Shown here: positions 2,884 through 35,768 of the stretch, one piece after another
Layout of the letters: every line of letters starts with the position of its first letter
Position numbering within the stretch: the first letter of the stretch is position 1
DNA from: a virus
Taxonomy: Duplodnaviria > Caudoviricetes
DNA length: 64,000 bases
Reading direction: 5' to 3' (one strand)
IMG/VR virus record: IMGVR_UViG_3300032281_000616
Coordinates: 128,001-192,000 of that record
Translations under genes and position numbers: made by a program
Notes under the pieces: generated by a model
Told to the model about the DNA's origin: nothing
What the model saw: the letters and a program-made list of their open reading frames with translations, nothing else
The model's database searches: none

Positions 2884-4367
2884 TTGGAAGGAATCATTTG
2901 TTTAGCCTTCTTGAGAACATCCTGCTCTGAGATTTCTCTACCACTTAATAACATCTCAGCCACCCAATCTTGTAATTTGGGTAAATACATACCGATCTGT
3001 TTGGGGTTTGTTTTGAATTGTGGAAACCATTGCATCATTTTATTACCATTAGCATACTGAGCTATTTGTTTTTTCAGAGCATCAGCACCTCCCGGAACTG
3101 TGTTTAGTTTAGCTTCTGCTCTCTCAATCTTATCCATAAACTCTTGTTTATCAAATAGACCGGGACCACGAGAAGCTTCATCACAATATGCCACAGCCTT
3201 AACAGTCTCCCATGAAGGATCATGAATCAATTTTCTGAGAGTCTTTATATTGAGTGTATCTAGATTATGAACCATCATATGTTTAGCTACAGCATCAAGA
3301 ATGTTCTTTTTATCATTCGGTCCTAGTTTAGCGAATCTCATTCTTTTGAAGATTCCCTCAACAATAGGAACACCAGCAGCTTCATGACCATAATATGTAG
3401 AATGTCCATTCTTTTCACCTCTAGTTGTAGCTTTTCCAAAGTCGTGGAAAAGAACAGCTAAGTTAATCACAGGATCACTATAAGGTGAAACTTTTAAGCA
3501 TTCGTGAATGTGACCAAGAACTTTACTCTCCCCTTCTGGATGATATTTCGGATTATGCATCATTCCATCCATCGCATGAAACTCTGGAAGAATATCTTGT
3601 AATATTCCAGCTTCAGTAAGCTTACTTAAAAAGTTTGATAGAGTTCTTCCTGATTTGGCTGCTTTAAACATTTCTTGAGAAATACTCTCCATAGAAATCA
3701 GAGAAGAATCTTGTAACAAGTGCTTCAATTCTTTAGCAGCTTGTAGAGTCTCTGGCTCAATATCAAAGTCCATCTTAGCTGCGAATCTGAAGACACGAAG
3801 CAAACGGGTAGCATCCTCCTTAAACCTCTCTCTAGGATTACCAACTGCACGAATTAATTTATTCTGAAGATCCTGTAAACCACCCTGATAATCTACAATC
3901 CTACCACGATGATCAAGACCAAAACTATTGATAGTAATATCCCTACGTTTGGTATCCGTTTCAAAACTATCAACCTCTACAGAAACATTACTCTGTCTTC
4001 CCATTTCAGTTTGAGAATCTTCCCTAAATTTAGCTAAGTCATAAGCATAGTTGTTATATAGGATAGTATAAACTGGTTGAGAATCATTCTTTGATATATT
4101 ACGCAACTCAAAATGTTGAGACAAATCCTCGAAGGGGATATTAGTTGCCATATCAACATCATCGATCTCGTTACCCATAATAAGGTCACGAGGAACACCA
4201 CCAACAATATAAATCTCTCCAGAAGGAAACAGATCAACAATCTTGTTCATCAGATTCAAGGCTACTCGGAGTTCTTCAGAAGATGAGATAGCCTTATTCC
4301 ATTTCTCTGAAAAGTCATCTAGATTATTATTGACTGATTCGAAGAAGAATTTTTTGAATGGGATCAT
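2838..4367 (-). CDS. cca: CCA-adding tRNA nucleotidyltransferase with HD domain
   Basis: YIVGGVPRD...DDVDMAT, DTKRRDITINS, RFKEDATRLLRVFRFAAK, then HIHE...VLFHDFGK (HD). Confidence 0.92.
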   Translation of the reverse strand: MIPFKKFFFESVNNNLDDFSEKWNKAISSSEELRVALNLMNKIVDLFPSGEIYIVGGVPRDLIMGNEIDDVDMATNIPFEDLSQHFELRNISKNDSQPVYTILYNNYAYDLAKFREDSQTEMGRQSNVSVEVDSFETDTKRRDITINSFGLDHRGRIVDYQGGLQDLQNKLIRAVGNPRERFKEDATRLLRVFRFAAKMDFDIEPETLQAAKELKHLLQDSSLISMESISQEMFKAAKSGRTLSNFLSKLTEAGILQDILPEFHAMDGMMHNPKYHPEGESKVLGHIHECLKVSPYSDPVINLAVLFHDFGKATTRGEKNGHSTYYGHEAAGVPIVEGIFKRMRFAKLGPNDKKNILDAVAKHMMVHNLDTLNIKTLRKLIHDPSWETVKAVAYCDEASRGPGLFDKQEFMDKIERAEAKLNTVPGGADALKKQIAQYANGNKMMQWFPQFKTNPKQIGMYLPKLQDWVAEMLLSGREISEQDVLKKAKQMIPSNHLINPISFFTRSLT

Positions 4368-21235: not shown

Positions 21236-21310
21236 TGAGAGAGACAGGATTCGAACCTGCATCGATCCATTACGGTACTACGGAGTAGAATTCCGTTCCG
21301 ATACACTCCC
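21236..21310 (-). tRNA. degenerate tRNA-like gene with truncated D-arm
   Basis: GGGAGTG/CTCTCTC acceptor, ACGGA/TCCGT stem, long variable region, GCAGG-TTCGAAT-CCTGT T-arm. Confidence 0.4.
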
Positions 21311-30485: not shown

Positions 30486-31163
30486 TTAATATCCCCACGC
30501 TTCTAGCGTATGTTTAAATGGTTTACCTTTAATACCCATAACAAGATCAAGCATTTCCTTGGCAATATCATTGATTTCCTTTTGTGCATGATCCGAGTAT
30601 CTTAGTTTCAACAAATTTGCAAAGCTTCTCATATTGAAACTAATATCTGCTTGGATCTGAGAATTGTATGTTTTGAAGAATCGGGCAGATTCTTTTGCTC
30701 TTTTGCGGCCAAGAGTAGGCTCAAGGTCTTTTAAACATTGATGATATAGCTGATTCCCCATTTCTGTGTATCTCTGTAGAATTTCACTCCAATTATCTCC
30801 AAGATAGTAGTCTAGTTCTTGAGCGTCAGCTTTTATGTTTTCCCAATCTTGCGGGATATAATACTTATCTTCTTTAAGTTCCTTATATCTTGCGGATTCA
30901 GCATTCATACTAGAAATCCTATGTTTCAATAAATGAATATGTGAAGCAATATCTGTATCGACCAAAAAATGAACCATGCCTTTTTCAAAAGGTGTTTCGT
31001 GTCCATTATCCCATAGATCTTTAATCAACTTGGGAATACGTTCTTCTTTATCAGGTGATAAATTTCTGCTTGTGCTAGTCCACGCTGAACATGCGATGAT
31101 TTTATCTGACCCATAGTATCCAATTAACGAAACGGTGTTGGAATTGTTATTAGTATTGTTCAT
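30486..31163 (-). CDS. thyX: flavin-dependent thymidylate synthase
   Basis: GHETPFE, HLLKHRISSMNAESARY, KESARFF, NMRSFANLLKLR. Confidence 0.92.
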   Translation of the reverse strand: MNNTNNNSNTVSLIGYYGSDKIIACSAWTSTSRNLSPDKEERIPKLIKDLWDNGHETPFEKGMVHFLVDTDIASHIHLLKHRISSMNAESARYKELKEDKYYIPQDWENIKADAQELDYYLGDNWSEILQRYTEMGNQLYHQCLKDLEPTLGRKRAKESARFFKTYNSQIQADISFNMRSFANLLKLRYSDHAQKEINDIAKEMLDLVMGIKGKPFKHTLEAWGY

Positions 31164-31845
31164 ATTTAAAATGTTTATATTTATTTGGTGGATTACCTTT
31201 TCGAATGTTTAAAAGCGATGTTACACTGACCCCACTCAATCTACTCAATTCTTGTATTGAACCAGCTTCAATTTCGGTAGAGTCTATAATGTTGATTAAT
31301 TTACATTTTATAGATATGGGTGTTAACCTACCTTTCAATTTTTTACTTATATTTGGGCGTTTAGTTCCTTTAAGTTTGCTGGGAACCCCTCTCAATTTAG
31401 AAGATCTTTTTTCTATTTGTTCTGGTGTAAAAACCTGTAATTTTCTTTTCTGTCTTATCTTTTCCTTTGTGGATTCTGAATGTATACGTCCTCGATTAGC
31501 ATCCCCAATCTTTTTTTTATGTTCTTCGGATTTGGGTTTGTTCTGTTTCGGTGGTATATTTCCACCAGAAGCTATATTCATTCCAATACTTGCATCCGTG
31601 CTGTTTTTCTCATTTATCCAATAAATTTCGCGTTCAGATAAATCTTCTTCTGATACTTTCTCCAACACTTCAAATTTATGATTAGATACCCCATATTTTT
31701 TAAATGAATTGTGTAGATATGGTTGATTTCTTGTATTACTTAAAAATCTATAATGCATCCACCTTTTATGAATATTTGCAGATAGCCCTATATAAATTTT
31801 ATTAGAAGGACTTGTGATGATGTAAATACCTGATATGATTTCCAT
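31150..31845 (-). CDS. GIY-YIG homing endonuclease with NUMOD3 repeats
   Basis: SGIYIITSPSNKIYIGLS; KSEEHKKKIG..HSESTKEKI. Confidence 0.9.
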   Translation of the reverse strand: MEIISGIYIITSPSNKIYIGLSANIHKRWMHYRFLSNTRNQPYLHNSFKKYGVSNHKFEVLEKVSEEDLSEREIYWINEKNSTDASIGMNIASGGNIPPKQNKPKSEEHKKKIGDANRGRIHSESTKEKIRQKRKLQVFTPEQIEKRSSKLRGVPSKLKGTKRPNISKKLKGRLTPISIKCKLINIIDSTEIEAGSIQELSRLSGVSVTSLLNIRKGNPPNKYKHFKYEQY

Positions 31846-31861
31846 ATCATTATTTAATCTA

Positions 31862-31891
31862 TCAACCTATTAATTCTACTTTATTATCCAT
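31862..31891 (-). pseudogene. stranded original thyX 5' end
   Basis: MDNKVELIG* versus functional NTVSLIGYYGS. Confidence 0.6.
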
Positions 31892-31920
31892 ATTATCAAA
31901 AATTATTATCAGAAAACGTT

Positions 31921-32000
31921 TATACTCTGCTCTGCCATCTGAGCTATACCTCCGTTTTATATATGTGGAGGCAGGATGATTCGAACATCCGACACGAGGG
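31921..32000 (-). tRNA. tRNA halves in permuted order (3' half upstream of 5' half)
   Basis: GGATG-TTCGAAT-CATCC-TGCCTCC-A, 13-nt linker, GGAGGTA-TA-GCTC-AGATGGCA-GAGC; the acceptor strands pair fully. Confidence 0.45.
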
Positions 32001-32176
32001 ATTCATTCCTTAGTATTTGCTGTATGTTTTCTTATCAAGTTACATTTTTTGCTACGTGTCCTAGCCAATTAGACGATACCATCTTTCATAGAAAGCGATG
32101 GCAGTGTTAACGGGAGTTGCTTTAAGTTTTGTTTCGAACATGTTGTTAGTTTAACTTAGTGTTTTACGAAGTCAAG

Positions 32177-32413
32177 TTAATTTAATTTATAATTGAAAAA
32201 GTTTTCGTCAGTTGATTTAACAACCCTAGATGGATCAAACTCTTCTCCGATAGTGCATTGGAATCCTTCGAAGATATATACAGCAACGTCTCCGTAAAGG
32301 GATTCCATAATTTCTTCAATATTTGAGCATTCGATCCAAGTTTTCTTAGTTAAGCAATGATGATGACTCCCAGAAATCCAACGATCTTCCCAAATCACGG
32401 TGTATTGTTTCAT
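32177..32413 (-). CDS. hypothetical protein
   Basis: Promoter motif at exact spacing. Confidence 0.7.
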   Translation of the reverse strand: MKQYTVIWEDRWISGSHHHCLTKKTWIECSNIEEIMESLYGDVAVYIFEGFQCTIGEEFDPSRVVKSTDENFFNYKLN

Positions 32414-32438: not shown

Positions 32439-33239
32439 TCAATAATCTTGGCAAGGATCGTTATTATGTCCGGGAAACAGATCTTCTCCAGCCTGTAGTT
32501 TCTTTGAAATCACATAAGCAATTCCATCTTGGAAGATGTAGTTATCAATATCATTATAGTTAGTTAGATTGAAGTTATCAACCTTATCACAAGCCCACCA
32601 TGAACCATTTTTTTGTTGATCGGTGCATTCAATAGCCCAATTGTGATCAATTCTATAAAGCATTTCATGTCTTTCCACACGACATTTACCTTCTAGGTCC
32701 TTATGAGAGAAGAACTGCTCACAGAACATATTAAGACTATTACGTTCCCAATTCTTTACTCTCCATAGGAAGACATTAGCGACATCATCTTTAGGACATT
32801 GAAATGCACGGGCATAAAATACAGCAGGTGTGGAATCCATATAATCCCACTGATTAAAATGTTCATGATTACTATGATCTTTAAGCAACCAATTTTTATT
32901 AAAGTATGCTGTCATCATTGCAGCCGTAACACTTTCAATCTTATTCTGTCTACCACCAAACCATTGTTGAGTGTCAATAGTAGCATCATCAGTTAATACA
33001 AATGTTACTTCATCACTCTGAGCATACAGAGCTTTACATCCTTGCATTTGTTGTGCTACTTCTTTAGCAGAGTCAAACATACAAGTGATCAATGTTTGAT
33101 CGAATGGTCTTTGACAACCCTTAGTCCATGTATGAAAACTTTTCCCGTCAAGTCTCACAATAATTGGAGTCTTTGGTAGAAAGTAGTGTTCGTAAATACT
33201 TTCGTAATTTTTGCAGCGGTCGCCCAAATTGTCTTTCAT
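32439..33239 (-). CDS. thg1: tRNA(His) guanylyltransferase Thg1-like
   Basis: IVRLDGKSFH, YAQSDEV, WFGGRQNK, ARAF, FLWR, FSHKDLEGK. Confidence 0.9.
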   Translation of the reverse strand: MKDNLGDRCKNYESIYEHYFLPKTPIIVRLDGKSFHTWTKGCQRPFDQTLITCMFDSAKEVAQQMQGCKALYAQSDEVTFVLTDDATIDTQQWFGGRQNKIESVTAAMMTAYFNKNWLLKDHSNHEHFNQWDYMDSTPAVFYARAFQCPKDDVANVFLWRVKNWERNSLNMFCEQFFSHKDLEGKCRVERHEMLYRIDHNWAIECTDQQKNGSWWACDKVDNFNLTNYNDIDNYIFQDGIAYVISKKLQAGEDLFPGHNNDPCQDY

Positions 33240-33853
33240 ATAAATAGTATATTCTAGTGTTTAATCGAGAGGATTCAGTTTTAGATAAGCATCTCGCCAC
33301 AACATAAACTCAAGATATTTTACGTATGTATACTTCTCTCTTTTCAACCACTTCATCCATTCTTCTTGAATTTTTTGATCTGGGTGTTGCTTAGATGGTA
33401 ATGTCGGTTTTTTCATACAATGTAATTCTTCTTTTGTGCTATCTCAATTGCCCGAGAACTACACGCCAATAGTCTTTCTATTAGTTCAATAGCTATGCAT
33501 AGTTCTGTCTTTGCTTGTGCTTCTGTTAGTTCGGATACTAACTTAACACCATATTTGGGATTATCTACTTGATAATTTGACCAATCTTTTTTATTCATAA
33601 AGAGGTGGGTGGGTTAACTCATAATTGGTATATTCCAGCTAGGGTCACTCCATAACATCAAGGCGTCTGTCTTTACGTTTTTGACAAAAACTTGAAAACT
33701 GGATATATACTTCATATGCCACCCATTAAAAAATTTTAAGTATATCAAATTCCTCTCTCATATGTATCAGGAGACTCTCCTAGTAGAGCTATGGCCATAG
33801 ATACTTCGGTATTGATGTCGATGATAAACACTCCGAAGAGCATACTTAAATGA

Positions 33854-34003
33854 TTGAGTGTGTGGAATTCGAATCCACGATTAACAGCTATAGACCATTT
33901 TGGGTATATAAGGCATTCTCAACGTTCCCGAATACCTTATATATTATTCCCTCTCAGAGTTTTCGAATTACTCCAACCTCGTATCCACAGAGGATTACAC
34001 TCA
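33854..34003 (-). ncRNA. 150-nt tRNA-like RNA with large internal hairpin
   Basis: TGAGTGT/ACACTCA acceptor, CCTC/GAGG D-like arm, GTGGA-TTCGAAT-TCCAC T-arm, 14-bp internal stem. Confidence 0.55.
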
Positions 34004-34010
34004 AATTATT

Positions 34011-35398: not shown

Positions 35399-35641
35399 TC
35401 AACGGTTCATATTTGATTTAATTCCACCAACAGTCCTACGATACTTACCAAGAATATCATAAAGTGGATCTTGGTTCATCATAAGGAATGTCGCTACATC
35501 AGTAGCGGATAGAGAACCTTGACCTTTACCAGATGATTGTAGAAATCCTCTGATATTAAGCATCAGTTCATGTTGTTCAGCTTGTAGACGATCCATAAAT
35601 AGTTTACCGTCCTTAGTTTCGTATGATTTGACTTGCTTCAT
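35399..35641 (-). CDS. hypothetical protein
   Basis: MKQVKSYETKDGKLF; start set by the motif. Confidence 0.7.
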   Translation of the reverse strand: MKQVKSYETKDGKLFMDRLQAEQHELMLNIRGFLQSSGKGQGSLSATDVATFLMMNQDPLYDILGKYRRTVGGIKSNMNR

Positions 35642-35676
35642 ATTGTTATTATATTCTAGTGTTTTATAAATTGAAT

Positions 35677-35768
35677 TGGGTGGGAGCGTCCTCCCATAAT
35701 GATATTGGATTCGAACCAATTACTAACCCGATCAGGCTTGGAAGTCACCATGCTTCTCATCATTCCCA
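35677..35768 (-). ncRNA. tRNA-like RNA with a hairpin inserted in the acceptor stem
   Basis: TGGG-AATGAT...GAAG/CTTC...ATTGG-TTCGAAT-CCAAT-ATCATT-[TGGGAG gacg CTCCCA]-CCCA. Confidence 0.45.

Follow-up and report, generated by a model that had tools for sequence, protein, structure and literature searches.

Does the minus strand at 31907..32032 of a phage genome encode a circularly permuted tRNA, the debris of two ordinary tRNAs or an RNA of another kind? The question is raised by a 64,000-nucleotide stretch of viral DNA (hereafter the window; positions 128,001 to 192,000 of IMG/VR record IMGVR_UViG_3300032281_000616, Duplodnaviria; Caudoviricetes), in which the 3' half of a tRNA-like sequence stands before the 5' half. 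Permuted tRNA genes with this order (3' half first, a short joiner, and a full cloverleaf with an anticodon arm) occur in Cyanidioschyzon merolae, some other algae, and archaea, and mature through a circular intermediate via the splicing machinery. An original prediction, made from the letters of the window, had read the element as such a gene behind a 26-aa leader peptide. Here, we report that the element, called unit 2, is very probably, on sequence comparison, a member of a phage small-RNA family: a tRNA mimic with the topology of the Y RNA YrlA, orphaned by the deletion of a gene for a Ro60-like protein. All positions follow the numbering of the window unless stated otherwise; the genome is the complete 202-kb phage record, which has terminal repeats.

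Unit 2 (31907..32032; 126 nt, including a GAUA linker) lies, with all of its parts, on the minus strand. Read 5' to 3', it begins with AGAAAAC (32026..32032), AUA, CAGCAAAUA, about 20 nt, CCCUC-GUGUC (32000..31991), and a T-arm mimic with a 5-bp stem and a UUCGAAU loop (GGAUG/UUCGAAU/CAUCC; 31974..31990), and continues with a closed acceptor-like hairpin (31947..31973), UA, a D-arm mimic (GCUC/AGAUGGCA/GAGC; 31929..31944), A, GAGUAUAAAC, GUUUUCU (31911..31917), and GAUA (31907..31910), the spacer of successive units in the arrays of relatives. The hairpin joins the acceptor 3' strand UGCCUCC (31973..31967), followed by an A, to the acceptor 5' strand GGAGGUA (31953..31947) across 13 nt (the unpaired A plus 12), and the strands pair at 7 of 7 positions, one of them G-U. 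AGAAAAC and GUUUUCU form a terminal stem (32026..32032 with 31917..31911), with the handle motif UACAGCAAAUA (32014..32024) beside its 5' strand and an A-rich UAUAAAC before its 3' strand. The halves, the 13-nt linker and the acceptor pairing named by the original prediction can all be read from the sequence, and no further 3' half follows the D-arm, beyond which a GIY-YIG gene starts at 31845.

The payload of unit 2 consists of the variable-loop-like GUGUC, the T-arm, the acceptor stem sealed by its 13-nt loop, and the D-arm. Direct reading finds the nucleotides of the tRNA tertiary contacts (U8, A14, G15/C48, G18G19, the T-loop UUCGAAU, and A21), and the consensus nucleotides that form the elbow are all kept. 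An anticodon arm is lacking, and the conserved terminal stem and the UACAGCAAAUA handle stand in its place. The doubt already voiced about the anticodon stem was justified, as only three pairs (GAG/CUC) precede the handle and no anticodon stem-loop can be drawn.

This permuted T-arm/acceptor/D-arm arrangement is real and far above chance. The Rfam YrlA model (RF02553) aligned over its full length (positions 1-114; 34.6 bits, E 5e-5). The covariance model R1, built from 12 homologous units, gave 108.6 bits (E ~1e-16) over model positions 1-138, which ranked 7th of 97 matches. The minimum free energy structure of the 126 nt alone contained the terminal stem, T-arm, acceptor hairpin, and D-arm (z = -2.57; 1 of 200 shuffles equally good). 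Unit 2 was called a tRNA by neither ARAGORN nor the Rfam tRNA model, ARAGORN reported no transfer-messenger RNA (tmRNA) at the locus, the Rfam model of Class I RNAs (RF01414) did not match unit 2, and blastn of the locus against GenBank phages returned no match.

A true circularly permuted tRNA gene, whose transcript is circularized and becomes a working tRNA once the loop joining the acceptor strands is opened, would account for the leading 3' half, the 13-nt joiner, the seven complementary acceptor pairs, the unpaired A at the discriminator position, and the covariation of the acceptor strands described below. It would not account for a protein-handle stem and UACAGCAAAUA in the place of the anticodon arm, for GAG/CUC as the only pairs there, for the negative ARAGORN and Rfam tRNA results, or for sister units that carry the same handle without any tRNA part. 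The permuted tRNA genes described so far need the archaeal or eukaryotic splicing endonuclease, which is not known from bacteria or their phages. Maturation to a working tRNA, as first proposed, is unsupported, and we regard it as highly improbable.

Under another reading, two ordinary tandem tRNA genes have decayed or met by chance, so that the T-arm and acceptor end of one precede the start and D-arm of the next; the YrlA model is known to give false positives on such sequence, an artifact against which Chen et al. caution (PMC4201824). The whole-genome YrlA search reported one match only, and it is of that kind: a partial alignment (model positions 24-84) at genome positions 119813-119872, on a tRNA-Pro/tRNA-Lys junction, which was rejected as a Y RNA and attributed to a dimeric tRNA. 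At unit 2, in contrast, the match spans the full model, an anticodon arm is found on neither side, the handle and GAUA are conserved, and the acceptor strands, one from each half, are complementary and covary in 12 homologs. Unit 2 is also unlike all nine tRNAs of the phage, and an origin from them was rejected. The covariance analysis across relatives suggested with the original prediction was run, and it showed that the acceptor strands belong together; because they covary in homologous units, decay of tandem tRNAs does not apply to unit 2, and we give it as little credence as a permuted tRNA gene.

These homologs define a family in which each unit consists of a handle (a 7- to 10-bp terminal stem, with (U)ACAGCAAAUA on its 5' side and an A-rich 3' side), a variable payload, and a 4-nt GAUA linker. 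In the arrays of two related contigs (L004 and L002), the layout is a 7- to 10-bp stem, 0 to 3 nt, CAGCAAAUA, payload, A-rich stretch, and complementary strand, and abutting units are separated by exactly GAUA in L008, L009, L010, and others. The handle consensus of the family is ACAGCAAAU; the C, G, C, and A of CAGCA were invariant in an 18-unit alignment. Payloads differ, from about 20 nt, through T-arm plus sealed acceptor plus D-arm, to a long variable arm like that of class II tRNAs and one conserved structure of about 150 nt, and some sister units in the same arrays lack any tRNA-like part. Unit 2 fits the family rule in its terminal stem (AGAAAAC/GUUUUCU; 7 to 10 bp, starting AR.. and ending ..YU), in (U)ACAGCAAAUA beside the 5' strand, in its A-rich 3' segment, and in its GAUA linker. 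The payload of about 150 nt (..GGCACUAAGGUAG..ACGGGACGAACGAU..) was seen at L010 6185-6381 and L007 ~3210-3400, conserved in both phages, where the stem, handle, and GAUA around it are of the usual kind.

An alignment of 12 tRNA-like units, taken from different loci, was analyzed with RNAalifold, which gave four helices with compensatory changes in 21 of 23 pairs. Paired cells amounted to 93.4%, compared with 65.7% in shuffles and 38-51% with slid partners, and the covariation score was 0.80 versus 0.27. The paired percentage is inflated by the choice of the 12 units, which a script picked by required pairing in the T, acceptor, and terminal stems. Compensatory changes occurred in 7/7 pairs of the terminal helix, 4/5 pairs of the T-arm (helix 2; 98% paired), 7/7 pairs of the acceptor (helix 3; 97.5% paired), and 3/4 pairs of the D-arm (helix 4; 97.9% paired). 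The D-arm was not used in unit selection, and its figure is free of that bias, as is a motif-anchored test in which pairing was not selected: a helix of at least 7 bp abutting GATA was found at 79 of 264 CAGCAAA sites, compared with 9 when 5' flanks were swapped and 0 of 87 on the opposite strand. In related loci, CAGCAAA was itself unevenly distributed, with 264 copies on the strand that carries the Ro60-like gene and 87 on the opposite one.

The gene in question was found in relatives. Three related contigs (L002, L003, and L004) were reached via the Thg1-like gene of the window (32439..33239, minus strand; Pfam Thg1), which lies two genes (about 0.4 kb) upstream of unit 2. In L004 and L002, a gene of 550 aa stands downstream of Thg1 (directly so in L004) and is followed by an array free of open reading frames (ORFs). 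Its product matches DUF7788 and, weakly, DUF2828, and belongs to a protein family with 1,890 matches at an E value of ≤1e-5, unnamed among the matches listed. The protein is predicted to fold like Ro60: an AlphaFold2 model (mean predicted local distance difference test [pLDDT] score, 81) was compared with the PDB by Foldseek, and the 13 best matches were all Ro60/TROVE structures (about 540 to 600 alignment columns), led by the Ro60 of Thermus phage phiLo (E 9e-7). Among PDB sequences, phmmer gave no match to the protein, so that the link to Ro60 is by fold only.

The RNAs and this gene keep company. At an E value of ≤0.01, R1 gave 97 matches in 690 kb of sequence with both strands searched, and 95 of them fell in related loci (52 loci), all in the orientation of the Ro60-like gene, with 90 downstream of it (median, 633 nt), 5 upstream, and 0 inside; this search, like the motif-anchored test, avoids the selection bias of the paired percentage. 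A search of IMG/VR with an RNA-only pattern returned 39 loci, of which 22 carried a Ro60-like gene within the stretch that was fetched, without exception on the strand of the RNA; 10 further records with the pattern were examined, and 6 had such a gene elsewhere in the record. The order Thg1, Ro60-like gene, array is shared by L004/L008, L002/L009, and L010; L003 ends too soon after Thg1 to show it. Thg1-like genes (a family of tRNA 5'-end repair and 3'-5' polymerase enzymes) were seen in the four closest relatives (L002, L003, L004, and L010) and not in remoter loci; a functional tie between this gene and the tRNA-mimic RNAs is possible.

YrlA is a tRNA-like Y RNA of bacteria and mycobacteriophage that is bound by Ro60/Rsr and modified by tRNA enzymes, and its acceptor is closed, with RNase P cutting, and CCA being added, at an acceptor stem of 7 bp (Chen et al. 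2014, PMC4201824). Unit 2 resembles it in the order of an end-joining stem, variable region, T-arm, closed acceptor-like stem, and D-arm, in the tRNA tertiary-contact nucleotides, and in the 7 bp of its acceptor stem, which match the RNase P-cleaved YrlA of M. smegmatis; in relatives, its family also stands beside and on the strand of a gene for a Ro60-type ring protein. It differs in its handle (UACAGCAAAUA instead of GNCGAAN0-1G, which in YrlA lies near the 5' end and is presumed to contact Ro60; the 5' region of unit 2 reads AGAAAACAUACAGCAAAUACUAAGG), in its score (34.6 bits, and 28.5 to 33 bits for relatives, against a gathering score of 69), and in the neighbor, which for YrlA is a TROVE Ro60 within about 4 kb on the same strand and for the relatives here a DUF7788/DUF2828 protein, deleted in this genome. 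The units of this family also stand in GAUA-linked tandem arrays with many non-tRNA payloads. Because motif, Rfam threshold, and TROVE neighbor all fail, unit 2 is set apart from YrlA proper and, by its sequence, is a variant of the Y-RNA kind and not a YrlA member.

Phage Ro60 proteins that bind phage Y-like RNAs are known from Thermus phage phiLo (Yrl1/Yrl2; PDB 9KOP and 9L5Y; PMC12135203). There, too, a phage-encoded protein of Ro60 fold has its partner RNAs beside the gene, and the relatives' protein matches its structure best, although sequence identity to that family is about 16%, and the Yrl RNAs lie upstream of the gene and were picked by a CGAA motif, with no tRNA-like domain mentioned (PMC12135203). 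In the Felix O1-type phage Bas63, the Ro60-like gp130 counters the Ppl defense, and nearby "tRNA genes" were speculated to be Y RNAs (PhageMaP preprint, PMC11482910). The likeness, drawn from the description, lies in a stretch of tRNA-like genes with a Ro60-like phage protein encoded directly upstream; the preprint defined and tested no RNA, and the window lacks such a protein.

The short members of the family recall the Class I RNAs of dictyostelids (RF01414; Kjellin et al. 2021, PMC7919456), which have a short end-joining stem, a conserved unpaired 11-nt motif by its 5' strand (Rfam consensus CCUUACAGCAA, compared with UACAGCAAAUA), and a variable remainder. Two short units (L004 6773-6835 and L002 8119-8168; 50 to 63 nt) matched RF01414 at 32.7 and 30.2 bits (threshold, 41.5), and the 8-nt UACAGCAA and the terminal stem are common to short sister units. 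Class I RNAs differ in being eukaryotic, about 60 nt long, without a tRNA-like payload, and encoded by single genes with their own promoters, and their known binder is an RRM protein; the resemblance may be either homology or convergence.

Why does the window carry such a unit with no such gene beside it? The complete 202-kb genome has no match to TROVE (PF05731), DUF7788, or the family profile. The 26-codon ORF upstream of unit 2 (MFETKLKATPVNTAIAFYERWYRLIG followed by a stop codon; 32141..32061, minus strand), first taken for a leader peptide, is instead the 5' stub of the deleted gene, whose first ~14 codons (MFETKLKATPVNTA; 32100..32141) are kept and whose frame then stays open by chance to 32061. 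By tblastn, the stub was similar to the N termini of P0022 and P0042 (MFENKLKP...); the N termini of family proteins read MFENKLKPTNVAVT and MFENKLKPQPVSKV, and that of the ORF reads MFETKLKATPVNTA. From the -35 box to codon 14, the DNA aligned with L010, L009, and L011 better than 500 of 500 shuffles, although not with L008. The promoter proposed for the ORF (TTGACT-16 nt-TAAACT; 32148..32175, minus strand) is no better than chance as a bare pattern match. It aligns, however, with the conserved gene promoter of relatives, at the same place, and TTGAC(A/T), 16 nt, and a TA...T hexamer are readable before the start codon of the Ro60-like gene in L008, L009, and L010. The -10 box was only ~6 to 7 nt from ATG in L008, L009, and the window (L010 has an extra insert of ~24 nt), and this short distance suggests a leaderless or near-leaderless mRNA for the Ro60-like gene.

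A two-piece (permuted) tmRNA, or a peptide-leader attenuator of the downstream RNA with the 26-aa ORF as its leader, might be read into the permuted order, which is that of two-piece tmRNA genes, and into a short ORF behind a promoter-like site. We consider both the most improbable of the readings weighed here: ARAGORN was negative for tmRNA, acceptor pair 3:70 is A-U and not G-U, and the ORF lacks a Shine-Dalgarno sequence, shows homology to the opening codons of the 550-aa gene, and is mostly deleted in the relative X2.

The second D-arm-like stretch of the original prediction (32074..32058), which overlaps the ORF, is present and belongs to a truncated unit 1 (32033..32104, minus strand) with its own closed acceptor-like hairpin (GCCAUC..GAUGGU), D-arm, A-rich tail, 3' stem strand, and GAUA. 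Unit 1 lacks handle, variable region, and T-arm, and R1 scored it (32157..32033) at 41.2 bits with the T-arm absent, the match adjacent to unit 2. Over 95 nt, its 3' part has 88% identity to L010 6441-6534, within a unit that is complete there, and a contig of run X4 departs from the window at 32093 into an intact T-arm of unit 1. An apparent terminal stem of unit 1 (AAGUUA/UAACUU) was rejected, its 5' strand lying in and just ahead of the -10 hexamer, upstream of where the transcript is likely to start, in a region homologous to the promoter and 5' end of relatives. A T-loop-like GUUCGAAAC was rejected as a relic of the T-arm, being the start of the deleted gene (AUG UUC GAA ..., MFE...), and a 78-aa ORF (32177..32413) was rejected as a remnant of the Ro60-like gene, with no significant similarity and a 1-nt deletion inside it in X2.

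L010 has kept the order Thg1, Ro60-like gene, array, two genes, and thyX. Because of this gene order, the homology of stub and promoter, and the truncation of unit 1, the sequences indicate a deletion of about 3 kb that took the Ro60-like gene after codon ~14 and most of the array. By the same comparison, the promoter and stub, 109 nt upstream of unit 2, are now joined to the 3' two-thirds of one unit, with the intact unit 2 next, and adjacency to a Ro60-like gene once existed at this locus and was lost by deletion. Unit 2 is probably still transcribed from the retained promoter. X2 has a further deletion of 153 nt between two copies of ATGUUCGAA (at the start codon of the gene and in the T-arm of unit 2), which takes the handle of unit 2, half of its T-stem, and most of the 26-codon ORF.

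Unit 2 might also be a functional orphan, working without the phage Ro60-like protein. It might then act on a host tRNA-binding enzyme or defense nuclease as a decoy or tether shaped like a tRNA, have a host-encoded Ro60/DUF2828 protein as partner, or be a substrate of the Thg1-like enzyme encoded upstream. Its perfect structure (108.6 bits, 7th of 97) and the kept promoter would suit such use. A contig from a different study (X3) has unit 2 with 2 differences in 152 nt, the Thg1 region of the run being far more diverged, and the few differences in X2 sit in loops. A second complete genome (G006, IMG/VR; 282,855 bases, locus L103, rated 100% complete) has a tRNA-like handle unit and no match to the Ro60-like family. 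The synteny of Thg1, Ro60-like gene, and array in close relatives points the same way, but this linkage is limited to one small clade. Against such use, a single deletion took the partner gene and most of the array and left the neighboring unit truncated; X2 lacks the handle and half of the T-stem; and the gene is in the same record for 28 of 32 checked RNA-pattern loci, the exceptions being one complete genome and three small fragments. Taken together, we hold a functional orphan to be possible, at somewhat less than even chances. As for the fate of the unit itself, we lean slightly, because of the truncated neighbor and the handle loss in X2, to a recent, still-perfect relic; a use kept with a host factor or on its own is only a little less probable.

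For intact loci, we propose a mechanism by analogy with Ro60 and Y RNAs. The array would be transcribed with or behind the Ro60-like gene and cut at or near the GAUA linkers, and the handle would dock each RNA on the Ro60-like ring. The payload would then offer its tRNA elbow, together with the sealed acceptor stem, to a partner that binds tRNA, as a tether or decoy, and the acceptor hairpin could be opened into a two-piece tRNA-like molecule. On a bolder and rather unlikely reading, RNAs with the stem and UACAGCAA would be the RNA partners of a separate, widespread DUF7788/DUF2828 clade, the handle an ancient docking module common with Class I RNAs, and the payload a part whose own function, such as a decoy or tether for tRNA-binding defense or repair enzymes, outlives loss of the protein.

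Several points weigh against unit 2 as an orphaned family member of YrlA topology. With the Ro60-like partner absent from this genome, phage parts alone cannot make up the proposed ribonucleoprotein. The YrlA hallmark GNCGAAN0-1G is missing, and the Rfam score is half of the gathering score. No intrinsic terminator follows unit 2. The loss of the handle in X2 argues that the remnant is dispensable in the clade. The paired percentages carry the selection of the 12 units, and the expression, RNA ends, and protein binding of family members are a proposal by analogy.

Particles of Ro60 and Y RNA are known in animals, some bacteria, and a few phages, and the Ro60-like phage protein that is reported to defeat Ppl has no defined RNA partners. 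No Rfam family or published description of the present RNAs was found beyond the speculation in the PhageMaP preprint (PMC11482910). The family would supply such partners, with a conserved handle, modular payloads that include tRNA mimics with sealed acceptors, polycistronic arrays, and fixed 4-nt linkers. The window is a natural experiment, in which a clean deletion removed the protein gene and most of the array, and the old promoter now stands before a single tRNA-mimic unit that is still perfect; the question it poses is whether the tRNA mimic needs the ring protein or not. In annotation, such units can be mistaken for permuted tRNAs, for pieces of tandem tRNAs, or for operons with a leader peptide.

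The unit model also gave a weak third match at 33743-33918 (minus strand; 24.5 bits), in a gap (33749-34010) without a minus-strand ORF of at least 40 aa, where no Rfam family matched at an E value of ≤1. Its T-arm (GUGGAUUCGAAUUCCAC) is identical to that of the phage's own tRNA-Tyr and is followed by a hairpin, a D-arm-like stretch, and a ...UUUGAUA end; it has no CAGCAA handle. Elsewhere in the window, a tRNA-Ile(gat) reported by ARAGORN at 35695-35766 is probably a false call, because it overlaps an ORF (35399..35719), abuts another of 621 aa, and has no Rfam tRNA match even at an E value of ≤1, and a weak Rfam tRNA match (33 bits) at 21236-21310 was unreported by ARAGORN.

Downstream of unit 2, the GIY-YIG gene (31150..31845, minus strand) encodes a free-standing homing endonuclease and lies in the extreme 5' end of thyX. 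A thyX stub of 9 codons (MDNKVELIG and a stop codon) stands upstream of it at ~31884..31855, and the ORF of thyX begins again at 31163, where its N terminus is new. The gene is read as an insertion into thyX because it is absent from X2, which skips 31107-31880, and thyX is uninterrupted in L010.

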